From contig JADHYM010000001.1 of NCBI GenBank assembly GCA_016782445.1, forward strand, positions 10,212 to 74,211: 64,000 nt of DNA. Direction: 5' to 3'. Source of the DNA: Candidatus Omnitrophota bacterium. Its GTDB lineage: Bacteria; Omnitrophota; Gorgyraeia; JABMRN01; RBG-13-46-9. The position numbers and the translations under genes are program-made. Below, one piece after another: positions 12,742-58,658 of this stretch. Each line of letters opens with the position of its first letter. Within the stretch, counting starts at the first letter, position 1. Under the pieces are notes generated by a model that saw only the letters and a list, made by a program, of their open reading frames with translations, was not told where the DNA came from and searched no databases.

Positions 12742-12890
12742 AAAAACCAAAATCCAAATGACAAATGACAAATAAAACCCAAATTCCAAATGTCAAATTT
12801 GCCTGCCTGCCGGCAAGGCAGGGATTTTGGAATTTGAAATTTATTTGGATTTTGTCATTTGACATTTGTCATTATTCCTCTATTCGCCCC
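12742..12890. repeat. composite roughly 150-bp imperfect palindrome: inverted and direct GTCATTTG-rich arms flanking a GCCTGCCTGCCGGCAAGGCAGGG hairpin
   Basis: Arms CAAAATCCAAATGACAAATGACAAATAAAA and TTTATTTGGATTTTGTCATTTGACATTTGTCATT; located between yacL and mlaD copy 1. Confidence 0.7.
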
Positions 12891-13549: not shown

Positions 13550-13571
13550 GCCTGCCTGCCGGCAGGCAGGC
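13550..13571. repeat. GCCTGCCTGCCGGCAGGCAGGC perfect 22-bp palindrome (family member)
   Basis: Other members lie at 9791-9836 (expanded variant), 12801-12823 and 27543-27564 (inside the anti-sigma ORF). A degenerate version lies at 52143-52167 in the homologous mlaD/mlaF gap of the second operon. Confidence 0.7.
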
Positions 13572-14369: not shown

Positions 14370-14380
14370 ATTCTTTTTTT

Positions 14381-14411
14381 TACAGCTTAAAGCTTACAGC
14401 TTATAGCTTAA
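14381..14411. repeat. AGCTTA(N)AGCTT tandem palindromic repeat (family; other copies 23449-23466 and 56437-56466)
   Basis: TACAGCTTAAAGCTTACAGCTTATAGCTTA; all copies intergenic. Confidence 0.55.
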
Positions 14412-24310: not shown

Positions 24311-24348
24311 ACAATAGTAGGGGAGGCTTAAGCCTCCCCTACTATTGT
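24311..24348. terminator. perfect 38-bp palindrome between convergent genes (deacetylase and ORF6N)
   Basis: ACAATAGTAGGGGAGGCTTAAGCCTCCCCTACTATTGT is a perfect inverted repeat with no U-tract. Confidence 0.5.
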
Positions 24349-24851
24349 TACTTATCCTGCCGAAAGCCGATGCGGCGCTTCGGCTTTTCAGGAGACGCTA
24401 TAAGCTCCCGTATCGCGTCGAAAACAACTTTGAATTGGCGGTTATATTTTTTCTCCATAGTTTCAATTTTTTTCCTTAGGCTCCTATGAGCAAGCAACAT
24501 CTTTCTCAGCTTAGTAAACGTTCTCATAATTTGGATATTAACCAGAATCGCTCTCCTGCTATTTAGCACAGAAGAAAGCATGGCTACTCCTTGCTACGTA
24601 AAAGCGTAAGGCAATTTTCTTGTGCCACCCCATCTTGATGTCACATTCTGTGATATCAAAATATCGAATTCTCCTTTATTTAGCTGAATCATGAAATCTG
24701 CAGGGAATCTCTCTATATTTCTCTTTACTGCCTGAATCAAGGCTCTTGTTTCAACATGGTAGAGCCCTGCCAGATCTCGATCCATTATCACCTTCTCGCC
24801 CCTTATGAGAAGTATCTTATTTTCTATTCTTTCAGCTGGCACTAAATTCAT
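24348..24851 (-). pseudogene. ORF6N-domain protein interrupted by an in-frame TAG (amber) codon at 24594-24596
   Basis: The two adjacent ORFs (24594..24851 and 24348..24581) are in the same frame and read ...[38 protein letters not shown].... The TAG occupies the position that, from my recollection of ORF6N-family homologues, is normally a Glu in ...LPYAFTEQGVAMLSSVL... Confidence 0.7.
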
Positions 24852-24872: not shown

Positions 24873-26411
24873 TTACATCATCCAAAAATCCCGATCCAAA
24901 CTCCTGTATGAAATCGCCTCGCTGATATGCGAGGCCTCAATGGTTTCTTTTTCTTCAAGGTCCGCTATCGTCCTGGATACTTTTAATATCTTGTCATACG
25001 CGCGCGCCGAGATGCCGAGCTCGAGAATTGCCATCTTGAGAAGCTCTTCAGCGTCTTTTTCGAGGTTACAGTGATTTTCCAGTTCTTTTGATTCGAGATA
25101 CGCGTTGAAAAGCAGGGCACCTCCCTTATATCGCGCTTTTTGTCTTTTTCTCGCTTTGTTTACGCGTTCTCGTATCTTCTCGGACGGATCGCCTTTTCTC
25201 CTGCCGGATAGCTCTCCGTAATTAAGTCGCGGGACATTCAGGTGTATGTCGATCCTATCGAGAAGCGGGCCTGATATTTTCGAAAGGTACCTCTGTATCT
25301 GATAAGCCGTGCAGTGGCATTCTTTTTTTGGGTCTGTAAAATATCCACAGGGACAGGGGTTCATCGCAGTTATCAGCATGAACCTCGACGGGTAAACATT
25401 GTTTCCCTGAATTCTTGAAATCCTTATCTCGCCGTCCTCGATCGGCTGCCTTAAAAGTTCCAGGACGTTCCGCTTAAATTCCGGCAGCTCGTCCAGGAAC
25501 AAAATGCCGTTATGCGCCAGGCTTATCTCGCCGGGCATAGGCATAGTGCCACCGCCCACAAGCGCCGCATCGGAAATAGTGTGGTGCGGATCCCTGAACG
25601 GCCTTGTTCTTACGAGCCCTTTATTCGGCGAGAGAAGCCCCGCAACGCTATGTATTTTGGAAGCCTCCAGTATTTCTTCCGTTGTCATTTCCGAAAGAAT
25701 CGTTGGCATTCTTTTTGCAAGCATACTTTTTCCCGACCCGGGCGGACCTATGAGGAGCGCGTTGTGGGACCCTGCCGCAGCAACCTCGAGGCCGCGCTTG
25801 ACATGCTCCTGCCCCTTGACATCGCTAAAATCAGTTCTGTGTTTTTCTTTATGCGTTACTTTCGAAGACATATTTCTGTTAAGGGATTTTGATTTTAGGA
25901 CCCCATTCGAAAAATCCACAACATCTCTTAGGCACTCAAATGCATAGATTTTTACGCCGGTTACGTGCATAACCTCCGCGAGATTCCTTTTAGGAAGCAT
26001 TATTTTCCCGACGCCCTTTTCTTTTAACCCCACGCACATGGGAAGGGCTCCTCTTACCTCTTTAAGTTTGCCGTCAAGCGAAAGTTCCCCGACCGCAGCG
26101 AACTCAAAAAGCCTATCCTGCGATATCGAGCCCTTCGCGCACAACAAGGAAAGCGCGATAGGAAGGTCAAAGCCCGAGCCCTCTTTTTTTACATTTGCCG
26201 GAGCGAGGTTTACGGTAATCTTCCCCTTGGGGAACTCGTATTTTGAATTTTTGATAGCGAACTTTATTCTGTCCCTGGATTCTCTTATGGCCGTATCCGG
26301 AAGCCCGATTATATTAAAAGCCGGCAACGCCCCTCCTGTTATGTCCACCTCTACCTCAATCTTGTACGCGTCTATGCCAATTACGCTTGCCGATAACGAT
26401 TTCGCAATCAT
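24873..26411 (-). CDS. comM: YifB/ComM family Mg-chelatase-like AAA+ ATPase
   Basis: N-terminal Lon-like/ChlI domain, AAA+ P-loop GPPGSGKSM, C-terminal ComM/YifB domain. Confidence 0.9.
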   Translation of the reverse strand: MIAKSLSASVIGIDAYKIEVEVDITGGALPAFNIIGLPDTAIRESRDRIKFAIKNSKYEFPKGKITVNLAPANVKKEGSGFDLPIALSLLCAKGSISQDRLFEFAAVGELSLDGKLKEVRGALPMCVGLKEKGVGKIMLPKRNLAEVMHVTGVKIYAFECLRDVVDFSNGVLKSKSLNRNMSSKVTHKEKHRTDFSDVKGQEHVKRGLEVAAAGSHNALLIGPPGSGKSMLAKRMPTILSEMTTEEILEASKIHSVAGLLSPNKGLVRTRPFRDPHHTISDAALVGGGTMPMPGEISLAHNGILFLDELPEFKRNVLELLRQPIEDGEIRISRIQGNNVYPSRFMLITAMNPCPCGYFTDPKKECHCTAYQIQRYLSKISGPLLDRIDIHLNVPRLNYGELSGRRKGDPSEKIRERVNKARKRQKARYKGGALLFNAYLESKELENHCNLEKDAEELLKMAILELGISARAYDKILKVSRTIADLEEKETIEASHISEAISYRSLDRDFWMM

Positions 26412-26426
26412 GTTTGCCTCTCTTTT

Positions 26427-26810
26427 CTATTCCTCGATAACGTTTTCGAAATGTTCTATTTTTTTTACGCTTCCCGACGCTCTGTAAAGCTCGACAGATA
26501 TAACGTCGATCTGCCACAGCGCTCCATCTATCCCTTGCATATCGCAATACACGAACGCGCACTGCACAAGTTTACGCTTTTTTTTCCGTGTTATTAAATT
26601 ATGGGGCGGCCCAAAATTCCCCTCGCGCCTGGTTTTTACCTCGGCAAAAATAAGTATTTTTTGCTTTCGGGCAACAATATCTATTTCTCCTAAATATGTC
26701 TTCACGTTCCGCCCGATAATTTCGTAGCCTCTGGCGCGGAGGAACCGCGCCGCGTGGCCCTCCCCGAGGTTCCCTACGGCGCGGTTTCCGGAAGCACTTC
26801 GCCTATTCGG
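26427..26810 (-). CDS. YraN family (UPF0102) endonuclease
   Basis: GEGHAARFLRARGYEIIGRNVK...EIDIVA...FAEVKTR motif; the common comM-yraN neighbourhood. Confidence 0.8.
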   Translation of the reverse strand, partial: PNRRSASGNRAVGNLGEGHAARFLRARGYEIIGRNVKTYLGEIDIVARKQKILIFAEVKTRREGNFGPPHNLITRKKKRKLVQCAFVYCDMQGIDGALWQIDVISVELYRASGSVKKIEHFENVIEE

Positions 26811-27093
26811 CATTATGCTTATAAGCATCGAGCATAACCTCTTTCAGGTATTCTGCCAGCTCTTTCGTGGCAGGGGTAAAAATATTGTACCACTTGCCGT
26901 TAGAGCCCTTTTGTTGCGGCATGCCGATAAAAAGGCCCTTCTCGCCCTCGACAACTCTGAACCCCTTGACGAAGAAAAGATCTCCGAACACAAGGTCGCA
27001 GAAAGCCTTGAGCTTGCTTCCATTTTCGAGCCTCGACATCCTGTCTACCTTTACGTTAAGCACCTCGTTCATTTCATACCTCCTCTTTTTCAC
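26803..27093 (-). CDS. spoVG: septation protein SpoVG
   Basis: 96 aa with GLFIGMPQQKGSNGKWYNIFTPATKE, a typical SpoVG core. Confidence 0.85.
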   Translation of the reverse strand: MKKRRYEMNEVLNVKVDRMSRLENGSKLKAFCDLVFGDLFFVKGFRVVEGEKGLFIGMPQQKGSNGKWYNIFTPATKELAEYLKEVMLDAYKHNAE

Positions 27094-27137
27094 GAGTTAC
27101 CCTTGCTTTACGCGGCTCAACTCAAGCCGCGCCCCTC

Positions 27138-27180
27138 ATATATAAGACACGCGAGGTAGCGTTTTGCTGCATTATTTTTT
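27138..27180 (-). promoter_or_regulatory. 43-bp conserved motif upstream of spoVG (copy 1)
   Basis: ATATATAAGACACGCGAGGTAGCGTTTTGCTGCATTATTTTTT on the plus strand; matches 38 of 43 positions with the copy at 27823-27865. Confidence 0.6.
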
Positions 27181-27227
27181 TAAATTTTTCCGGAATTCGG
27201 GCAAAATAAGAAGGGTTCTCGTCGGTA

Positions 27228-27266
27228 AAGCAAAAAAGAGCCGGTTTTCAAAAAACCGGCTCTTTT
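27228..27266. terminator. rho-independent terminator hairpin with flanking T/A runs (bidirectional)
   Basis: AAAAAAGAGCCGGTTTTCAAAAAACCGGCTCTTTTTTT; lies downstream of the anti-sigma gene. Confidence 0.75.
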
Positions 27267-27300
27267 TTTAAAAATGAAAGGCTAAAAAGCTCTTAGCGGC

Positions 27301-27795
27301 CTAGCGGGTCTTGAAGTTCCGAAGAATTCTGGAGGCCTCTTTTTCTCCGCCTTTTTGCCAGGCGTCATATATCATGATAAGCATGCGGGCATTCGTGGTA
27401 TCAAAAATCCACTTGGCGCCCATGAGAATTGCGGCAACTAAAAACTGCGCAAAGTAACCCGTCTTGAAAAACGATAGCGCAAACGCTATAATCGTTCCTA
27501 TAAGCCATATATGTTTTTTCCAGTTAGCTTTCATTTTTTTCTCCCTGCCTGCCGGCAGGCAGGCTTTTATCTTCTTGTATTCATCTACTGTCTGGTATGC
27601 GAATACAAGCGCGTCCATGCACTCGCCGCACCCTGCTAAATGCTGCTCGATTCGTTCCCTGCTTTCCCGGGAAACTTTTCCATTTAAGTAATCGTTTAAA
27701 ACTACTTCATTTATACACGTATTTGTTTTTACCATATTTTTCCCTTCGATATTTTTCTCACGCAATCGATCAACGCCTGACGTTTCGCCCGACAC
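27301..27795 (-). CDS. putative membrane-bound anti-sigma factor (zf-HC2 type)
   Basis: H..GCGEC zinc-finger anti-sigma motif, then one TM helix; immediately downstream of the ECF sigma gene. The ORF includes an in-frame copy of the GCCTGCCTGCCGGCAGGCAGGC palindrome, so it may be two fused ORFs. Confidence 0.55.
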   Translation of the reverse strand: MSGETSGVDRLREKNIEGKNMVKTNTCINEVVLNDYLNGKVSRESRERIEQHLAGCGECMDALVFAYQTVDEYKKIKACLPAGREKKMKANWKKHIWLIGTIIAFALSFFKTGYFAQFLVAAILMGAKWIFDTTNARMLIMIYDAWQKGGEKEASRILRNFKTR

Positions 27796-27822
27796 AACCG
27801 CAACCGATCAACGCCCCCCCCT

Positions 27823-27865
27823 ATATATAAGACACGCGAAATGCTGTTTTGCTGCATTATTTTTT
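27823..27865 (-). promoter_or_regulatory. 43-bp conserved motif between the ECF sigma gene and the anti-sigma gene (copy 2)
   Basis: ATATATAAGACACGCGAAATGCTGTTTTGCTGCATTATTTTTT on the plus strand; overlaps the last codons and stop of the sigma gene, and lies 27 nt upstream of the anti-sigma ORF. Confidence 0.6.
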
Positions 27866-28432
27866 CATTTTCTTCCGCATCCGGGCAATGATCGAGGACG
27901 CTGTCCCGACGGGAACGCGGATAATTTTCGCTATCTCTTTGAGTGAAAGATTTTTTTTAAAATATAATTTGAATAAGAGCTTTTCTCTTGAAGATAGCCC
28001 CCTGTATAAGTCTTTTATCTCGGCTTTTAAATCTCCTTCCGGCGCCACGCTGGCTCGCGCTGTATCTTCCTTTTTCAAATTATCAAAGTAAGATTCTTCT
28101 CCGATAAGTATTTCATTTTTTTTCGACCGCATATGATTCACGGAAGCGTTTCTTGCCATAACAGTGAGCCAGTAATCAATGCTATCTCTTTCTCTTATCT
28201 CTTCGAGCTTATTGTCGATCCAAAGCCCGGCAACGATCTCCTGTTTTATGTCCTTAATATCTTCTTCGCGAATATGGGGCCTCAACGAATACTGCGTGAG
28301 CGCCTTTTGTATCGCAAAAACTATGAGCCCTGAATATCTGGCAATGAACTCCGCCCACGCGACTGCGTCACGCGAAATACATTTATCGATCAACTCCGCC
28401 GTGCAGAGACCCCCGTACTTCATTACCTCCAC
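27857..28432 (-). CDS. RNA polymerase sigma-70 factor, ECF subfamily
   Basis: Region 2 followed by a region 4 helix-turn-helix (LSLKEIAKIIRVPVGTASSIIARMRKKM); about 190 aa. Confidence 0.8.
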   Translation of the reverse strand: MEVMKYGGLCTAELIDKCISRDAVAWAEFIARYSGLIVFAIQKALTQYSLRPHIREEDIKDIKQEIVAGLWIDNKLEEIRERDSIDYWLTVMARNASVNHMRSKKNEILIGEESYFDNLKKEDTARASVAPEGDLKAEIKDLYRGLSSREKLLFKLYFKKNLSLKEIAKIIRVPVGTASSIIARMRKKMKK

Positions 28433-28959
28433 AAGCCTTTGTTGTTTTCCCGAGCTTCACGCTGGAGCCGCAGGAATTTATCTATGTATTTCACGTTCGG
28501 CGGAAACGTGTAAACTTGAGCGTACCCCTCTCGCAGGAGCTCGGCGTTCAGCATTCTGCCGTCCGGAAGATAGACGTATGCGAGGAGCCTGCCGTAGCGG
28601 TCGCGGCGCTCAACGTCAAATTCAAGCCGCACCCTTTTACCCTCGACAAGCATCTTCGTGAAATCAGAGGCTTTTTTGCCCATTGCAATAATAGTAGCGG
28701 CATCTCGTCCGGAGCTCTTCATGTCGCGGGCGAGCTTAGCGTTATATCGTGACTCGGGCGTGTCTATGCCTACAAGGCGCACTCTTTCCCTATCAGCAAG
28801 CTCGATTGTATCGCCGTCTATCGCTCTTGTTACCAGGATATCGTTGTAATCATGTAGGCCCGCCGAGCAGGCTGAAAGAAACATGGGTAGCAAAAGGACA
28901 AGCGCGCCGAGGAGTCTTGCGACACGCTTCTTTCGTCTTGTAGTTTTTTTCCCTCTCAT
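28423..28959 (-). CDS. thermonuclease family (SNase-like) lipoprotein
   Basis: Signal peptide with a lipobox (LLPMFLSAC) and SNase motifs (RLVGIDTPE, YGRLLAYVY). Start set at MRGKK immediately after the lnt stop. Confidence 0.75.
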   Translation of the reverse strand: MRGKKTTRRKKRVARLLGALVLLLPMFLSACSAGLHDYNDILVTRAIDGDTIELADRERVRLVGIDTPESRYNAKLARDMKSSGRDAATIIAMGKKASDFTKMLVEGKRVRLEFDVERRDRYGRLLAYVYLPDGRMLNAELLREGYAQVYTFPPNVKYIDKFLRLQREARENNKGLWR

Positions 28960-30545
28960 TTTTGTTTCCTTTCCCTTATAACGCTTACCGTGTACAGAAT
29001 CATAACAAGCGCGATCGAGGCCCAGCTGAATACGTCTCCAAATCTTGTATAAAAAGTGCGGTAAAATGAAGGGCGTATCCCGCCGATGCAAAAGCCCTCC
29101 ACAAAAATCTTGTCTTTGTCTACCTCTACGTATTTCACAACTCTCCCCGTACGGTCTATAATACAGGAGACGCCGGTATTCGCGGCGCGCACAAGCGGCA
29201 CCTTGTTTTCAGCCGCACGAAAAATAGAGCCTTCGAGATGCTGGTACGGCGCGCTCGTCTTCCCGAACCAGGCATCATTTGTGATGTTCACGAGGAACCT
29301 CGCGCCCTCCTTCACGAACCTCCGCACATGGTCAGGAAAAATATCCTCAAAGCACACAAGCACGCTGAATCTATAGAAATCCGTTGTCCGTAAAACATGC
29401 CCATTATTCGCACTTGTCGCATTTACAACTCTGAAATTAAAAACCGTGAACTCACTGCCCCGATTGAACTCAGCTATAGGCTTATCGATGTAATCTTTGA
29501 CCCACGCGAGCCTGTCGCCGAAGGGCATGTACTCGCCGAAAAGAACAAGGTGGGACTTGTCGTAATGTTTTTCGATTCCCTTCGCCGGAGACAGGAACAT
29601 GGCGCTATTGAAAACAGCCCCTGCCTCGTCTCTTACGGAACCTACAAGTAAGTGCACGTTGTTCTTATCGACAAAAGATGTGAGGGCTTTTTTGAGGTCC
29701 TTTTCCTCCGCGAGATACCCAGGCACTGCAGTCTCCGGCCACACGAGTAGCCCGGGCTTTTTCGAAAGCGCTTTCTCTGAAAGCCTTACGTATTGCCGCA
29801 TTATGGAATTTCTGAAGGCAGGGTCCCATTTTTCGCCTTGCGGAATATTTCCCTGCACCGATGCCACGCGTAACTCGCTCGCCGGATAGTGCCTCTTTAT
29901 TACATATTCCCCGTATAAAATATTAAATGCGTAGATCATCAATGCGAAAAATAGCACGTAGAAACGGCCTTCGCGTTTTCGGATCGCTTTATAAACTGAA
30001 AAATTTATAAGCACTATGAGAAATGAAACGCCGTATGGCCCCGTTATATCGGAGATCTGTATTGTTGGAATATTATAAGACTGGGAGTAGCCCAGGAGTG
30101 CCCACGGAAAACCGGTCAGAAAATGTGAGCGCATGTATTCGGTAAAAATCCAGGCAGCCGGCACAAAAACGAAGGATGAAAGACGAGAAACGAGGGACGA
30201 GCTGCATAGCGCTGAAAATATCGCCGGCGCAAGCGCAAGAAGAATTACAAGAATCAGCGCGCCCGGTACGCTTATCTTAAAAAGCCAATATAAAATTGCG
30301 CCGAAGAACAGGAACCCGTAAAAATATCCCAGCGTAAATCTTTTTTTGGTATCTTGATTTTCTATGGCGAAAAAAAACGGTATGAAAGAAAACCACGCCA
30401 GAAATCCTATATTAAAAGGTGGGTAACATAATATAAGGCAAGCTGCTGATACGGCAATCAATATCGACCTGTAACCTGAAACCTGCAACCTGAAACCTGA
30501 ACTTACTTCCCGCAGCACTTCTTGTACTTCTTCCCGCTCCCGCAC
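28956..30545 (-). CDS. lnt: apolipoprotein N-acyltransferase
   Basis: N-terminal polytopic membrane domain and a C-terminal CN-hydrolase domain (E/K/C triad region VLVCFEDIF). The 5' end is uncertain because the first codons lie in a heptamer repeat that overlaps the secA stop. Confidence 0.8.
   Translation of the reverse strand: MREREEVQEVLREVSSGFRLQVSGYRSILIAVSAACLILCYPPFNIGFLAWFSFIPFFFAIENQDTKKRFTLGYFYGFLFFGAILYWLFKISVPGALILVILLALAPAIFSALCSSSLVSRLSSFVFVPAAWIFTEYMRSHFLTGFPWALLGYSQSYNIPTIQISDITGPYGVSFLIVLINFSVYKAIRKREGRFYVLFFALMIYAFNILYGEYVIKRHYPASELRVASVQGNIPQGEKWDPAFRNSIMRQYVRLSEKALSKKPGLLVWPETAVPGYLAEEKDLKKALTSFVDKNNVHLLVGSVRDEAGAVFNSAMFLSPAKGIEKHYDKSHLVLFGEYMPFGDRLAWVKDYIDKPIAEFNRGSEFTVFNFRVVNATSANNGHVLRTTDFYRFSVLVCFEDIFPDHVRRFVKEGARFLVNITNDAWFGKTSAPYQHLEGSIFRAAENKVPLVRAANTGVSCIIDRTGRVVKYVEVDKDKIFVEGFCIGGIRPSFYRTFYTRFGDVFSWASIALVMILYTVSVIRERKQK
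30467..30503. repeat. heptanucleotide tandem repeat (CCTGNAA x5) at the secA stop / lnt 5' end
   Basis: ACCTGTAACCTGAAACCTGCAACCTGAAACCTGAACTT. Confidence 0.8.
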
Positions 30546-33500
30546 GGACAGGGGTCGTTCCGCCCGACTTTAGGGTCCTGACGCTGGTATGTCTCGTCAC
30601 GGCCCGGGCCGGTTGCAGCCATGGGTTTTGGTCCATGCTCCGCGTCTTGAGGCAGGATTCCGTCGAGCCCCGGAGCTTCCTCGTGTATAAACGTTTCCTT
30701 GTCGCGCTTAAAAACGCCGGATTTAAGGCGCTCCTCAACAGCAAACGTTTTAAAAAGTCTTTCCGTAATATCTTCGTCGATCGTTTTTATGAGCTCCGAG
30801 AACATCGCAAACGCCTCGCGCTGGTATTCGACTAAAGGATCACGCTGGCCGTACGAGCGCCACGATATGCCCTCTCTCAAGCTGTCAATACTTTCTAAGT
30901 AGTCCTTCCAGTTTGAATCAATGATGCCAAGCATTATCATTTTTTCCAGGGCGCGGGTTTTTTCCTCACCCAGTATTTGCTCCTTCGTGGCGTAGAGGTG
31001 CTTGGCGTGTGACATAACTTTCGCTATTATTTGCTCCTTCGCAAGGCCGGAAATCTCATCCGCGTGAAGATTGATCAGAAACTTAAAGCGAATCTTTTTT
31101 AAAAAAGCCTCTGACTCTTCTTCCTCGTTATTAAGCTGCTGGAGCCACTCGGAAAGCACTTCCTCTAGTATCAGGAACGCCTCTTCTTTAAGATTGTCCT
31201 CGAATATTACGTTACGGCGGCGCGCATAAATAAGCTCTCTCTGCTGATTCATCACGTCGTCGTATTTCAAGAGGTGCTTTCTCATTTCAAAGTTCTGGGT
31301 TTCCACTCTTTTCTGGGCAGTGCTTATGGCACGCGTTATTAAGGGGTGCGCTATGTCCTGACCCTCTTCCATGCCGAGCCGCTCCATGATAAGTTTTATC
31401 CTGTCGGATCCGAAAATACGCATGAGGTCATCCTCGAGAGAAAGGTAAAACCTGGACGAGCCCGGGTCGCCCTGGCGGCCCGAACGGCCCCTTAGCTGAT
31501 TATCAACGCGTCTCGATTCGTGGCGCTCGGTCCCGATTACATGCAGGCCCCCGAGCCCTACCACTTTATTGTGCTCTTCTTCTGTCTTTTTTCTGTATTC
31601 TGCCAGATACTTCTCTTTAACCGCGAGCCGTTCAGTTTGCGATTCTATTTCCAGTTTGCCGAGGGAGTCCTCCGCGAGATAATCCGCGTTGCCCCCCAAA
31701 AGTATGTCGGTTCCGCGGCCGGCCATGTTAGTGGCAATCGTGACGCCCTTGAAACGGCCCGCCTGGGCGACTATATGAGCTTCCATCTCGTGGTATTTCG
31801 CGTTCAGCACGTAGTGCGGGACACCGCGTTTTTTCAAAAGCTCACCCAGGTTCTCTGATCTCTCTATCGAGATCGTTCCCACAAGAACGGGCGTTCCTGC
31901 CTCGTTTAGCTTCGCTATCTCATCGCAGATAGCGTTAAATTTCTCTCTTTCCGTTTTATAGATCACATCCGCGTAGTTGGTTCTCTTTAAGGGCTTATTC
32001 GTAGGCACGATGACTACCTCAAGCCCGTAAATATTCTCAAACTCCGAGGCCTCGGTAGCGGCCGTGCCGGTCATGCCGGAGAGTTTGTCATACATCCTGA
32101 AAAAATTCTGAAGAGTAATAGTCGCAAGGGTCTGCGATTCGCGCTGGACCTCGAGTGACTCCTTTGCCTCTATCGCCTCGTGTATCCCGTCGGAATAGCG
32201 CCTACCGGGCATCATGCGGCCGGTAAACTCATCCACGATGACTATTTTATTTTCATTGATAACGTAATCCACGTCCTTCCGGAAAAGGACGTATGCCTTC
32301 AAAAGCTGCTTTATGCTGTCGACGCGCATGGTCTTCTGGGAATAATCAGTGGTTACCTCGCTTTCCTTCACGAGTTTTTCTTCCGGCGAAAGGCCCGCAT
32401 CCCCTGAAATTTGCGAAAGCCGCACCTCCATGTCTTCTATTATGAACTCAACCCCGAATTTCTGCTGCATTACGTCTTCGCCTTTGGAGGTAAAGGTAAC
32501 CTCGCGCGTTTTCTCGTCAAAAACAAAATAGAGCTTTTCGAGAAGTTCAAGGCGCTCCTTTTCCATGAGCTTGGAGTCGTAGGTCGTAACGGCCTTGTCA
32601 AAAAGGCTTTTTATCTTGGTATCCTTTAAAACGAGCTCAAGAAAATCCCTTTCTTTCGGCGAGCCCTTATGTATTATATATAGGAGATGCTTTGCTTTTT
32701 CTTGATCCTTCTCAAGCTCCGCTTTAAGCTCTGAAAGAAGATCCCGGATGAGATTCTTCTGAAGCCTCGAAATATGATCAACTACGGGCTTCATCTCGAC
32801 ATAAGAGGTGTTGAGATTTTCAGTCGGGCCGGATATTATAAGCGGGGTGCGCGATTCATCCACGAGGATGCTGTCGACCTCGTCAACTATCGCGAAATGA
32901 AAACCCCTCTGAACTACGTCGGCTTTCTCGATGACCATGTTATCCCTTAAATAATCAAACCCGAATTCGTTGTTTGTCCCGTAAGTTATGTCCGAGGCGT
33001 ATTCTTTTTTTCGCGCCATAGGCGACATGTCGTGCTGTATGACGCCGACAGAGAGCCCTAGAAATTCAAAAAGCGGCCCCATCCAGTTCCTGTCGCGACG
33101 CGCCAGGTAATCGTTTACAGTAACTATGTGAATGCCCTTTCCGGTCAGGGCATTAAGGTACGCCGGAAGCGTCGCAACAAGCGTTTTTCCTTCGCCGGTC
33201 GCCATCTCCGCGATCTTCCCCTCATGTATTACGAGCCCGCCTGCAAGCTGGACGTCGAAATGCCGCATTTTTAATACCCGTTTTGAGACCTCCCTGACGA
33301 CAGCAAATGCCTCGGGTAAAACCTCCTCAAAAACTTTCCCTCTTAAAATTTTAAGTTTTTTCTTTAGCTTGTCTTTTTCCTGCCGGAACGAGGACTCCTC
33401 AAACCTCGACTGGAGTGCGCCTATCTCGCTTTTGAGCGACTCGGATTTTTCGTATATCTTCTTTTTGAATTCGTCGGTTTTCTTGCCGAGCGCATCATCC

Positions 33501-33610
33501 GAAAGGGCGGATACCGCTTTCTCGAACGAATTTATCTTCGCCACCACCGGCTTAAGCCGCGCGAGCTCTTTTGTATTATGCGACCCTATTATTTTGTTAA
33601 GGATATTCAC
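30503..33610 (-). CDS. secA: preprotein translocase ATPase SecA
   Basis: DEAD-like motor domains, and a C-terminal zinc-binding tail CPCGSGKKYKKCCG. Confidence 0.95.
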   Translation of the reverse strand: MNILNKIIGSHNTKELARLKPVVAKINSFEKAVSALSDDALGKKTDEFKKKIYEKSESLKSEIGALQSRFEESSFRQEKDKLKKKLKILRGKVFEEVLPEAFAVVREVSKRVLKMRHFDVQLAGGLVIHEGKIAEMATGEGKTLVATLPAYLNALTGKGIHIVTVNDYLARRDRNWMGPLFEFLGLSVGVIQHDMSPMARKKEYASDITYGTNNEFGFDYLRDNMVIEKADVVQRGFHFAIVDEVDSILVDESRTPLIISGPTENLNTSYVEMKPVVDHISRLQKNLIRDLLSELKAELEKDQEKAKHLLYIIHKGSPKERDFLELVLKDTKIKSLFDKAVTTYDSKLMEKERLELLEKLYFVFDEKTREVTFTSKGEDVMQQKFGVEFIIEDMEVRLSQISGDAGLSPEEKLVKESEVTTDYSQKTMRVDSIKQLLKAYVLFRKDVDYVINENKIVIVDEFTGRMMPGRRYSDGIHEAIEAKESLEVQRESQTLATITLQNFFRMYDKLSGMTGTAATEASEFENIYGLEVVIVPTNKPLKRTNYADVIYKTEREKFNAICDEIAKLNEAGTPVLVGTISIERSENLGELLKKRGVPHYVLNAKYHEMEAHIVAQAGRFKGVTIATNMAGRGTDILLGGNADYLAEDSLGKLEIESQTERLAVKEKYLAEYRKKTEEEHNKVVGLGGLHVIGTERHESRRVDNQLRGRSGRQGDPGSSRFYLSLEDDLMRIFGSDRIKLIMERLGMEEGQDIAHPLITRAISTAQKRVETQNFEMRKHLLKYDDVMNQQRELIYARRRNVIFEDNLKEEAFLILEEVLSEWLQQLNNEEEESEAFLKKIRFKFLINLHADEISGLAKEQIIAKVMSHAKHLYATKEQILGEEKTRALEKMIMLGIIDSNWKDYLESIDSLREGISWRSYGQRDPLVEYQREAFAMFSELIKTIDEDITERLFKTFAVEERLKSGVFKRDKETFIHEEAPGLDGILPQDAEHGPKPMAATGPGRDETYQRQDPKVGRNDPCPCGSGKKYKKCCGK

Positions 33611-34705
33611 TTTTTCTTGTCGTATCTTAAATACGCCTCTATAAAACCTTCCAGATCCCCGTCAAGAACACTGCCTGAGTTTGAGGTCTCGCAACCGGTC
33701 CTATGGTCCTTCACCATGGAATATGGGTGAAGGACATATGAGCGGATCTGACTTCCCCATTCGATGCGTTTTTTTTCGGACTGTTTTTTTTCAAGCTCTG
33801 ACTTTTTCTTTTTGAGTTCCATTTCGTATATGCGCGATTTCAGCACTTTCATGGCGGTGGACTTATTTTTATATTGCGAGCGCTCGTTCTGGCACTGGGC
33901 AATGATGCCGGTCGGAAGGTGCGTTATCCTGACCGCTGAATCGGTTACGTTTACATGCTGGCCGCCCCGGCCCCCGGCGCGATAGGTGTCGATCTTCAGC
34001 TCATCCGGCTTTATGTCCACTTTTATCTCCTCGTTTATCTCGGGCACGACGTCGACTGAGGCGAAGGATGTATGGCGGCGCTTGTTCGCGTCAAAAGGCG
34101 AGATCCTCACCAGCCTGTGCACGCCCCGCTCGCCCTTCAGGTACCCGTAAGCGAATTCTCCTTTTATTACGAAAGTCACGCTTTTAATGCCGGCCTCTTC
34201 TCCGGCGAGATAATCCACACGCTCGATTGCATAGCCTTTCGAATCGGACCACTTGGTATACATTCTGAAAAGCATGCCGGCCCAGTCGCAGGATTCAGTG
34301 CCTCCGGCGCCCGCGTTTATGCTTAAAATGGCGTTAAGCGAGTCTCCCTCCTCGCCCAGAAGGCAGTTGAATTCGAATTTATCCAGCTTTTTTTGAACAG
34401 CGCTTAATTCTTCGCCGAGGTGCCGAAGGGAAGGCTCGTCGTTCGCATCGGTTATTTCAAGAAACTCTTCCGTTTCCTTTAATTTGGATAAAAGCGAAAG
34501 AAAAGGATCTACTGATTGTTTTAACGATTTGAGCTCTTTTAGCGTGGCGTTGGCCCTCGTGCGGTCGTTCCAGAAACCCTGTTCGGCTATGCGGCCTTCA
34601 AGCTCTTTGATCTTACTCTTTTTTTTATCCGGGTCAAAGATAGCCTCCTAAGGTGTTTAACCTCGTTCGAAGATCTTTAAGCCGATCCTTTATATTTTCA
34701 GACAT
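33607..34705 (-). CDS. prfB: peptide chain release factor 2 with programmed +1 ribosomal frameshift
   Basis: Frame 0 reads MSENIKDRLKDLRTRLNTLGGYL then UGA. The site is AGGAGGCUAUCUUUGAC (TGA at 34634-34636 on the complementary strand), with an SD-like AGGAGG three nt upstream of CUU UGA C. The +1 frame continues ...DPDKKKSKIKELEGRIAEQGFWNDR... through to the SPF and GGQ motifs. Confidence 0.9.
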
Positions 34706-34785: not shown

Positions 34786-34901
34786 GCGGTTGCGGTGGCG
34801 TCGCGGGAAACGACTGCGTCAATCGGTTGCGTGCATAAAAAACCGCAGCCGTCCAACGACCGACGTTTCGCGCGACGCAACCGATCAGCGCAACCGCAAC
34901 C
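34786..34901. repeat. GC-rich roughly 120-bp dyad-symmetric element (family copy A)
   Basis: GCGGTTGCGGTGGCGTCGCGGGAAACGAC...GTCGTTTCGCGCGACGCAACCGATCAGCGCAACCGCAACC; the two halves are mutually complementary. Copies at 56993-57118 and a partial one at 27766-27818. All lie between minus-strand genes. Confidence 0.65.
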
Positions 34902-55605: not shown

Positions 55606-56429
55606 TACTCAACAATCACGACTTCTGTGCCGCTCGGCACGATCGCGTAGAGCTCCTCTACGTCAGAGTTTTTCATTCTCACGCACCCTTTTGTTATGTG
55701 CTTGCCTATAGTAGATTCGTCGTTCGTCCCATGTATCCCGTAATTTTCCTTAGATATGCCCATCCAGCGCGACCCCAGCTCATATTCGGGGCTATCAGGG
55801 CTTACCGTGGCGCCTATTTTGTACCAGACAGGCTTTATCATTTTTTCCTCTATATAAAATTCTCCTACCGGAGTGCTCAAGTTTTCGCCGGTTGAGACAG
55901 TGTAGCTTTTAAAAAGCTTTCCGTTTGAAAGAAGAAGAAGCCTGTTCCCCGAGCGGTCCACATGTATGCTGAATTTTGCCTGCGGCACCTTAAGAAACTT
56001 CCCGGGAAATATCATGTCAGAGATAAGGCCGTTTGATTTCTTTATAAGCTCAACGGTCGTGTGGAATTTGGTGGCGATTTTTATGAGCGTATCCCCGGGT
56101 TTTATCTCGTAAAGAAAGCTGTCCTTCGTTACGGAATCTGAAAAAAGGATTTTTACGTTAAGTTTTTCGATTTTTTTACGGGTGGCTTCTTTTTTCTTAT
56201 CGTTCGGGTGCGTCTCCAGAAAGTGCTCGAACGCTCTTTTCGCCTTTTCGGATTCGCCGGCTGCTTCGAGCGAGACAGCTTTTTTGTAAAGGCTGTTTTT
56301 TGTATCGTTATGTACGGAATTTAATTTTTTTCGCGCTTTTTGTACGGCAATATTTTTATACAAAAAAGATACCGCGATCAAAAACGCGACTGCTGCCAGG
56401 GCTATTGCCAGAACAAATCTCTTATTCAT
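55605..56429 (-). CDS. L,D-transpeptidase (YkuD) with LysM domain
   Basis: LysM ([29 protein letters not shown]) and a YkuD catalytic motif (HGT...GCVRM). Confidence 0.8.
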
Positions 56430-56470
56430 ATTTTTTATAGCTTACAGCTTAAAGCTTACAGCTGTAAAAA

Positions 56471-56929
56471 TTACCACAATAAAAGCGTGACCCCAATGCC
56501 GCAGGCTATTCCCACCAGCACCTCGATAGGCGTGTGCCCGAGAAGTTCCTTGAGGCGGTCTTCTTGTGTGTGCTTCTTCCAGTATATGTCATCCAGCATC
56601 TTGTTTAGGATTTCTGCCTGCTTGCCTGTGGCCCTCCTTACGCCTTGCGCGTCCATTATCACTATGACTGCGAACGCGACGCATAAAGCAAAGAGCGCGG
56701 AATCAAAACCGACATAAAGCCCCATGGCCGTGGAAAGGGCGCTTACGGTAGCGGAATGAGAACTCGGCATCCCACCGGTTCCGACAAACCACCTGAAGTC
56801 AAACCGCTTCTCGCGAATGACGCCCAGAATAACCTTGATGGTCTGGGTTATCGCCCACGCGTAGATAGTGATAAGAAGCACCTTATTTTGGACGAGTTCT
56901 ACAAATATTTGGCGCGATGATGGGTCCAT
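56471..56929 (-). CDS. divergent PAP2 family membrane protein (DUF212/YuiD-like)
   Basis: GMPSSHSA motif and 4 TM helices. Confidence 0.7.
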   Translation of the reverse strand: MDPSSRQIFVELVQNKVLLITIYAWAITQTIKVILGVIREKRFDFRWFVGTGGMPSSHSATVSALSTAMGLYVGFDSALFALCVAFAVIVIMDAQGVRRATGKQAEILNKMLDDIYWKKHTQEDRLKELLGHTPIEVLVGIACGIGVTLLLW

Positions 56930-56992: not shown

Positions 56993-57118
56993 GTTTACGT
57001 CGGTTGGCTGTGGTTGCGTCGCGCGAAACGTCGGTTGTCAATCGGTTGCGTTAATATTGACGCAACCCACCCACGCGACCGATTCTCGCGACGCCACCGA
57101 TTGACTTAAACCGCAACC
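56993..57118. repeat. GC-rich roughly 120-bp dyad-symmetric element (family copy B)
   Basis: GGTTGCGTCGCGCGAAACGTCGGTTGTCAATCGGTTGCGTTAATATTGACGCAACC...CGCGACGCCACCGATTGAC...AACCGCAACC. Confidence 0.65.
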
Positions 57119-57119
57119 T

Positions 57120-58658
<1,539 letters not shown>

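Follow-up and report, generated by a model that had tools for sequence, protein, structure and literature searches.

Why should nearly the same sequence stand in front of two unrelated genes, spoVG and the gene of an anti-sigma factor, in a bacterium of the phylum Omnitrophota? The stretch analyzed here (the window) is 64,000 nucleotides of contig JADHYM010000001.1 from Candidatus Omnitrophota bacterium. The genes in question all lie on its minus strand, in the order prfB-secA-lnt-SNase-sigma, copy 2 of the repeated element, anti-sigma, terminator, copy 1, spoVG-yraN-comM. We consider it probable that the element is a promoter of the extracytoplasmic function (ECF, group 4 sigma) type, cognate to the ECF sigma factor encoded beside it, which would give negative feedback through the anti-sigma gene and would also drive spoVG.

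A first, sequence-only reading of the window had pointed to a pair of motifs, and a pattern search recovered the pair as described: two copies on the minus strand, at 27138-27180 and 27823-27865, identical at 38 of 43 positions. All five mismatches of the 43-mer fall within the central 7 nt. Since the minus strand encodes all the genes of this region, the motif has to be read as its reverse complement, and in this orientation TAATGCAGCAAAAC-N7-CGCGTGTCTTATATAT matches 27138-27174 and 27823-27859 exactly (0 mismatches). Allowing up to three mismatches brought no third match in the 64 kb (shuffle expectation 0, 100 shuffles), and half-motif and relaxed searches of the 64 kb gave no further convincing copy. 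The pair was extended by a repeat search to 61 nt at 82% identity (family D7). A dispersed repeat with many copies unrelated to gene starts had been named as the finding that would speak against a shared promoter; the window holds two copies, each facing a gene start. The C-run that was said to precede each motif becomes, on the coding strand, a G-rich box after it (GAGGGG and GGGGGGGG), either a relic of a ribosome-binding region or an actual one.

Two candidates of another kind were set aside. A terminator-like hairpin on the plus strand (27156-27170) is without counterpart in copy 2. We also rejected, for both strands, a structured RNA, riboswitch or small RNA: Rfam gave no family at the gathering score (weak matches all fell on the terminator), folding of the two copies was not significant (z = -1.26 and +0.39), and the variable center shows no compensatory changes.

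To compare the element among relatives, loci (L-numbers below) were collected from sigma orthologues (64-88% identity), anti-sigma orthologues (42-61%) and two DNA-pattern scans covering public genomes and metagenomes, which yielded 11 further genomes. The gene order sigma, anti-sigma, spoVG-yraN-comM, with occasional inserts before spoVG, is conserved across the Omnitrophota relatives. The copy at the sigma/anti-sigma junction is present in 11/11 related genomes, at anti-sigma identities down to 42%, and a second copy lies 5' of spoVG in every genome whose contig extends to that gene (conserved in L006, L015, L018, L037, L039, L047, L061, L063, L064, and L066). Every copy faces a gene start 19-173 nt downstream, and there are no copies beyond the junction and spoVG pair within the 12-20 kb loci or the 64 kb window. 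In the complete chromosome CP070780.1 (1.43 Mb), the strict pattern found the spoVG copy and one copy 5' of a RayT-like gene; it overlooked the junction copy, which deviates slightly from the pattern. Nine of the 12 matches in the genome scan lie in unrelated taxa and are without the flanking A-tract and G-box, a number equal to the ∼9 chance matches estimated by hand for an 18-base pattern in the genome collection. The metagenome scan returned mostly chance or unrelated matches, together with 9 true loci. The suggestion that the motif is a shared promoter is supported by copies that always point at a gene start and by orthologous sites that are kept across the clade.

On the coding strand the element is ordered as phased A-tracts (AAAAAATCTTAAAAAATAA, UP-like), a hexamer, a 16-nt spacer (17 nt in L064 and L066), TGTCT or CGTCT, (T)TATATAT, and a G-rich box. 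In the window these conserved sequence blocks are placed as follows:

27132..27187, minus strand: predicted promoter copy 1, 5' of spoVG
27172-27187, minus strand: copy 1 A-tract/UP-like AAATTTAAAAAAATAA
27166-27171, minus strand: copy 1 -35, TGCAGC
27150-27165, minus strand: copy 1 spacer, 16 nt
27145-27149, minus strand: copy 1 -10, TGTCT
27138-27144, minus strand: copy 1 AT-rich TATATAT, with the predicted transcription start inside
27132-27137, minus strand: copy 1 G-rich box, GAGGGG
27814..27872, minus strand: predicted promoter copy 2, sigma/anti-sigma junction
27857-27872, minus strand: copy 2 A-tract, which is the final sigma codons KMKK and the TAA stop
27851-27856, minus strand: copy 2 -35, TGCAGC
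27835-27850, minus strand: copy 2 spacer
27830-27834, minus strand: copy 2 -10, TGTCT
27822-27829, minus strand: copy 2 TATATATA
27814-27821, minus strand: copy 2 G-run

The TGCAGC of copy 2 immediately follows the stop codon TAA of the sigma gene (27857-27859). Among relatives the -35 hexamer varies from TGCAGC in the window to TGCAGG (L006, L012-L015), TGCAAG (L064), TGCAAC (L066), and AG(A/C)CGC (L061). A G-rich stretch follows TATATAT in every copy, and in most relatives it is the Shine-Dalgarno sequence of the next gene. Measured to the conserved ATG positions, the motif in the window ends 66 nt before spoVG and 88 nt before the anti-sigma gene; the distances of 45 and 27 nt given earlier had been taken from the longest open reading frames (ORFs) and have to be replaced.

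Does the element have the form of an ECF promoter? L066 carries TGCAAC-N17-CGTCTT, L064 TGCAAG-N17-CGTCTT, L063 TGCAGC-N16-CGTCT, and the window TGCAGC-N16-TGTCT; a CGT(C)-type -10 is found in L066, L011, L061, L063, and L064. S1-mapped promoters of Streptomyces coelicolor sigma-E include TGCAAC-N17-CGTCTG and CGCAAC-N17-CGTCTT (PMC6767563). The L066 element has the same form as these mapped promoters, and the version in the window appears to be a drifted derivative. The AAC...CGT submotif that had been proposed for comparison with ECF promoters is literal in L066 and degenerate in the window, where the spacing and GTCT are kept and the AAC and the C of CGT are lost. Sigma-54, sigma-28, and Bacteroidetes-type consensus sequences, compared by eye, match neither in spacing nor in bases.

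The position of the -10 is constrained by relatives with short leaders. From YGTCT to the anti-sigma ATG the distance is 19-22 nt in L010-L015, L018, L047, L061, and L064; to the spoVG ATG it is 24-28 nt in L064 and L066. In those close-start relatives a GGAGG box is the sole Shine-Dalgarno between the -10 and the ATG. With the ATG so close and a single Shine-Dalgarno available, the start has to fall within TATATAT, with YGTCT as the -10: if TATATA were the -10, transcription would begin within the Shine-Dalgarno or past it, whereas a -10 at YGTCT keeps the G-rich box in the mRNA. Both this transcription start and the promoter activity are predictions from sequence. A start inside TATATAT would make the G-runs of the window ancestral ribosome-binding sites. 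The ribosome-binding sites of the window are shifted downstream, that of the anti-sigma gene by a 70-nt insert of a 14-nt unit and that of spoVG by a leader with a 9-bp hairpin. Two other placements of the -35 were rejected. The AAC in GCAAAAC combined with CGCGT leaves a spacer of only 7-9 nt; the same AAC combined with TATATA (16 nt) violates the Shine-Dalgarno constraint, and close relatives have GGATTTT instead.

Co-variation of the two copies was examined with a permutation test in which junction and spoVG copies were re-paired between genomes (11 genomes with both copies). The match between the two copies in each block was:

-35 hexamer: within genomes 0.97, permuted 0.80, p = 1e-4
first 5 spacer nt: within genomes 0.91, permuted 0.60, p = 1e-4
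last 3 spacer nt: within genomes 0.76, permuted 0.40, p = 1e-4
-10: within genomes 1.00, permuted 0.91, p = 0.003
spacer center: within genomes 0.52, permuted 0.44, p = 0.018
12 nt downstream: within genomes 0.59, permuted 0.53, p = 0.28

The two copies of a genome share the -35 (with two single-base exceptions), the spacer length, and the -10, all of which differ between genomes. Within genomes, the contact blocks show a large excess and the spacer center a small one; downstream there is none. The excess persists when the copies are 2.9 kb apart (L066) and even at 7 kb, beyond divergently oriented genes (L063), and the unlinked third copy of CP070780.1 (L025) follows the same co-variation. 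Since the likeness is confined to protein-contact blocks, it favors a shared, co-evolving reader over gene conversion.

The genes and signals around the two copies are as follows:

28423..34275, minus strand: prfB-secA-lnt-SNase, overlapping reading frames, providing the sigma transcript in this lineage
27857..28423, minus strand: ECF-type sigma gene, 188 aa (Pfam Sigma70_r4, r2; TIGR02937)
27745..27813, minus strand: insert of ∼70 nt in the 5' leader, with two GGCGTTGATCG(G/A)TTGCG units, parting copy 2 from the anti-sigma ribosome-binding site
27301..27735, minus strand: gene of a membrane-anchored anti-sigma factor of zf-HC2 (zinc-associated anti-sigma, ZAS) type, 144 aa (Pfam zf-HC2; ATG at 27735)
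27231..27268, minus strand: intrinsic terminator after the anti-sigma gene, 17-bp hairpin plus U-run (-23.1 kcal/mol, z = -5.85)
27110..27132, minus strand: 9-bp hairpin GCGCGGCUU-GAGUU-GAGCCGCGU at the 5' end of the predicted spoVG leader (z = -2.66)
24873..27072, minus strand: predicted target operon spoVG-yraN-comM, order conserved in L001, L061, L063, L064, and L066
26803-27072, minus strand: spoVG, 89 aa (Pfam; ATG at 27072, the start annotated in public contigs; AGGAGG ribosome-binding site)
26427-26828, minus strand: yraN/UPF0102 (Pfam)
24873-26411, minus strand: comM/Mg-chelatase-like gene (Pfam)

Domain searches bore out the names given before to the products (SpoVG, zf-HC2 anti-sigma, ECF-type sigma, SNase, and Lnt). 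The sigma factor scores 74.7 bits against TIGR02937 (sigma70-ECF; cut-off 42.9). In Pfam, Sigma70_r4 is above its cut-off and r2 slightly under it (22.5 vs. 24). With sigma regions 2 and 4 only and 188 aa, the factor has the composition and size of ECF sigmas (∼170-220 aa). The protein reaches no NCBIfam subfamily or equivalog cut-off (top score 50.5 vs. 130 bits), and its nearest solved structure is Bacillus subtilis SigW, a weak match (E 5e-4). Its ATG overlaps the stop codon of the nuclease gene in a TAATG junction (28421-28425), and these overlapping frames support the proposed co-transcription of sigma with lnt and the nuclease gene. The zf-HC2 gene stands directly 3' of the sigma gene in 12/12 genomes; in nine orthologues of its product the H-x3-C-x2-C motif (H32, C36, C39) is invariant and the start M-VKT is conserved. 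Counterparts of the terminator hairpin are found in L006, L010, L013-L015, and L018. Because this strong terminator separates copy 1 from the anti-sigma gene, spoVG requires a promoter of its own. The hairpin of the spoVG leader is kept in L006 and L010, in the latter despite two genes inserted between hairpin and promoter, and could be a stabilizing 5' stem-loop or a regulatory element.

The leader insert before the anti-sigma gene is missing from the L010-L015 orthologues, where the ATG lies 19-22 nt after the -10, and is present in L006. Its 14-nt unit, GTYRATCGRTTGCG, is dispersed in the window (6 matches vs. 0.23 expected) and is paired in three intergenic regions (27745-27813, 34818-34889, and 57037-57105). 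L063 is among the relatives that have other lineage-specific short repeats where the window has the insert. The anti-sigma gene itself carries a one-mismatch copy (27543-27564) of a 22-nt palindrome, GCCTGCCTGCCGGCAGGCAGGC, of which the other copy is intergenic (13550-13571). The copy in the ORF is in frame and encodes ACLPAGR in the cytoplasmic linker of the anti-sigma factor. An insert of 6-7 residues in this linker occurs in only 3/9 orthologues (window, L006, and L061). A small palindromic element seems to have entered the anti-sigma coding region.

How is the sigma gene itself transcribed? In L061, L063, L064, and L066 it heads its own transcription unit (in L063 a deacetylase gene precedes it) behind a sigma-70-type promoter with TTGACA-N17 (L061, L063, and L064) or TTGACT-N17 (L066), so that the housekeeping enzyme transcribes the sigma gene in these relatives. 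No ECF-type copy was found upstream of the sigma gene in L018, L061, L063, L064, or L066. The circuit that we favor would then work as follows. The sigma factor would be made constitutively, here as the last gene of the prfB-secA-lnt-nuclease transcript and in relatives from its own sigma-70 promoter, and the membrane-anchored zinc-finger anti-sigma factor would sequester it. Released sigma would fire the promoter that abuts its own stop codon, giving more anti-sigma factor and hence negative feedback with no positive autoregulation. It would also fire the spoVG-yraN-comM promoter beyond the strong terminator. The anti-sigma gene and spoVG had been taken as a small regulon. They have the only copies in the window; across the clade, however, the promoter is not limited to these two genes and is also found at transposase, ORF6N, and Gp49/HTH (helix-turn-helix) genes.

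Several observations weigh against this circuit. The hexamers of the window, TGCAGC and TGTCT, are without the textbook AAC and CGT, and the copies of L047 disagree at the sixth -35 base. There is no ECF-type promoter upstream of the sigma gene, though most ECF sigmas autoregulate. Transposase and toxin-antitoxin genes of relatives carry the same promoter, which a generally strong, portable promoter would also fit. That the adjacent sigma factor is the reader is suggested by adjacency, architecture, and co-variation. The helix of sigma region 4 does change along with the -35 (IIARMR or I(T)RMR with TGCAGC; IISRMR with TGCAGG; IKRAK or IKRSK with TGCAA(C/G); VAKIR with AGMCGC), but this match is only suggestive because it is confounded by phylogeny and by physical linkage, copy 2 overlapping the 3' end of the sigma gene.

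We regard it as unlikely that an alternative-sigma promoter, ECF-type or other, is read here by a different sigma factor encoded elsewhere, the adjacency being incidental or a matter of cross-regulation. The sigma gene without a promoter copy upstream of itself would fit such a reader, as would promoters at unlinked sites (L025, L028, and L036). However, a copy is found directly at, or overlapping, the 3' end of this sigma gene in 12/12 genomes, whatever the upstream context of the gene, the -35 variants follow the lineages of this sigma factor, and the one complete genome of the clade examined, a small one of 1.43 Mb, would presumably encode few alternative sigmas. It is quite unlikely, in our view, that the housekeeping sigma RpoD uses the element as a promoter without a -35, with TATATA(T) as -10, the G-box as discriminator, the A-tract as UP element, and TGCAGC/YGTCT as an activator or repressor site. 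Such a promoter would mean strong constitutive expression, for example with anti-sigma factor held in excess over sigma. The phased, UP-like A-tracts and the G-rich stretch after TATATAT in every copy agree with it, and so does the element 5' of unrelated mobile genes in relatives, as for a generic strong promoter. Against RpoD, TATATAT contains no hexamer with both A2 and T6, and a sigma-70 consensus scan was silent at either copy; TATATA as -10 would put the start in or after the sole Shine-Dalgarno in at least 8 genomes. The canonical TTGACA/TATAAT form is seen at other promoters of these genomes (the tRNA-Leu promoter of the window is TTGCAC-N16-TGaTATAAT), no other intergenic region of the 64 kb shares the -10 block, and the conserved blocks lack the symmetry typical of operators bound by dimers.

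The lack of symmetry bears also on an operator of a regulator such as SpoVG, laid over two promoters and giving autoregulation. SpoVG of Staphylococcus aureus is described in PMC7376557 as a site-specific DNA-binding global regulator, and one copy of the element controls, or would control, spoVG. The motif has neither dyad nor direct-repeat symmetry, though, and its two conserved blocks have the 16-17 nt spacing of a promoter and an ECF-like sequence, the conservation being that of a -35 plus a -10; we hold an operator to be improbable. The least probable origin of the pair is an inert dispersed repeat, or a recent duplication or gene conversion between neighboring intergenic regions, and we give it hardly any weight. 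These genomes are rich in small dispersed repeats, and the two copies in L022 share ∼95 nt. But the sites are conserved at orthologous positions over a deep clade with constant orientation to the downstream gene, and the within-genome similarity is limited to the -35 and -10 blocks, with no contiguous tract.

Copies of the promoter are also found elsewhere in relatives, each directed at the gene behind it. RayT/IS200-like transposases with flanking hairpins resembling repetitive extragenic palindromic (REP) sequences lie behind the promoter in L025 and L036, an IS110-family transposase in L028, ORF6N genes in L013, L022, and L010 (in the last, promoter and spoVG leader are separated by the cassette), a Gp49/HTH pair in L022 and L050, and an HTH gene in L029. 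The mobile genes may have captured the promoter or may insert beside it. A portable ECF promoter that was repeatedly acquired by mobile genes, or that serves as their landing site, is a tentative idea that we consider doubtful; in that case a single envelope-stress sigma factor would switch on SpoVG and its own inhibitor together with functions in transposition or defense, with no positive autoregulation.

Several side observations concern these mobile genes. In L025 (1-720, CP070780.1) and L036 (500-800) the promoter lies between REP-like inverted hairpins flanking the RayT-like genes, and the promoter may be connected with REP/RAYT systems in Omnitrophota. In L022 (1840-2950) and L050, two promoter copies 924 nt apart share ∼95 nt including upstream GGGGAGGGG..CTGTTCCATTCCAGATCTTCTAAAAATCTT and head successive cassettes, Gp49+HTH and then ORF6N; the contig is labeled 'Planctomycetia' and the promoter is of the Omnitrophota type. 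In the window, L061, L064, and L066, the last position of the spoVG-yraN-comM operon is taken by ORF6N or Y1-transposase genes. ORF6N/IS200-like (Y1) genes after comM or between promoter and spoVG are located at 24348-24851 in the window, L010 3699-4402, L013 1250-1534, L061 12998-13474, L064 4901-5521, and L066 15231-15437. The ORF6N gene of the window is apparently split into ORFs of 85 and 77 aa. The surroundings of the spoVG operon look like a hotspot for small mobile genes.

Putative mobile promoters are known as near-identical promoter segments 5' of non-homologous genes. The element of ∼50-95 nt 5' of RayT, IS110 transposase, ORF6N, and Gp49/HTH genes in relatives resembles them, whereas the window's copies are old, fixed at orthologous sites, and not recent insertions. 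In B. subtilis, spoVG is sigma-H dependent and has an upstream A+T box. SpoVG homologues have reportedly been studied also in the diderm Borrelia burgdorferi. According to the reference list of PMC7376557, S. aureus transcribes yabJ-spoVG in a sigma-B-dependent manner, and the characterization of SpoVG homologues extends across eubacteria. The sequence-only reading considered an spoVG under ECF control in a diderm to be unusual; given this S. aureus precedent, as listed in PMC7376557, an spoVG under an alternative sigma is not unusual in itself. Likeness to the S. aureus and B. subtilis genes lies in a dedicated alternative-sigma promoter with A/T-rich DNA upstream; the sigma would be a group 4 ECF here and is of group 3 there, and the setting here is a diderm candidate phylum with yraN and comM as partners.

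The locus is closest to known ECF/ZAS modules (S. coelicolor sigma-E; B. subtilis SigW, SigM, and SigX). As in these, a two-domain sigma of ∼190 aa stands beside a zf-HC2 anti-sigma factor; in relatives the -35 ends in AAC and is followed by a 16-17 nt spacer and a -10 CGTCT(T), the form of sigma-E promoters; and the regulon would be small and highly stereotyped. Unlike them, the elements of the window have drifted (TGCAGC, TGTCT), the sigma factor is weakly similar to characterized ECFs, and the promoter is not 5' of sigma. It was reported previously that Escherichia coli rseA P3, a sigma-E-dependent promoter inside rpoE, drives rseABC with a 228-nt leader (PMC8595263). Both there and here, a promoter in or at the 3' part of the sigma gene transcribes, or is predicted to transcribe, only the anti-sigma gene and adds negative feedback (PMC8595263). 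The differences are that rpoE has its own sigma-E promoter and thus positive autoregulation, whereas the sigma gene here has a sigma-70-type promoter or read-through only, and that the leader of 228 nt compares with an ancestral leader of ∼15-20 nt.

A literature search on Omnitrophota sigma factors gave nothing relevant, and to our knowledge there is no experimental work on transcription control in this widespread, uncultured phylum. The locus offers a concrete, testable set of promoter, sigma, and anti-sigma, of which 12 genomes provide natural variants. The predicted regulon is small and defined (spoVG-yraN-comM and the anti-sigma gene), and by the feedback proposed here the sigma factor would, as regards its own control, induce only its inhibitor. 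It would tie spoVG to an alternative sigma well outside the Firmicutes, and the divergent -35/-10 pairs could serve as orthogonal parts. The kind of circuit is well known and the phylum is unstudied; the gain is incremental, and the modest peculiarity is feedback through the anti-sigma factor only.

Apart from these elements, the window contains tandem arrays with a period of 7 nt at 58290-58478, 14372-14410, 56420-56472, 70-127, and 12748-12881. Their units include (TCTGTCT)n, ACAGCTT/AAAGCTT, and TTTGTCA/TTTGGAT, and some occur as inverted copies 12.6 kb apart.

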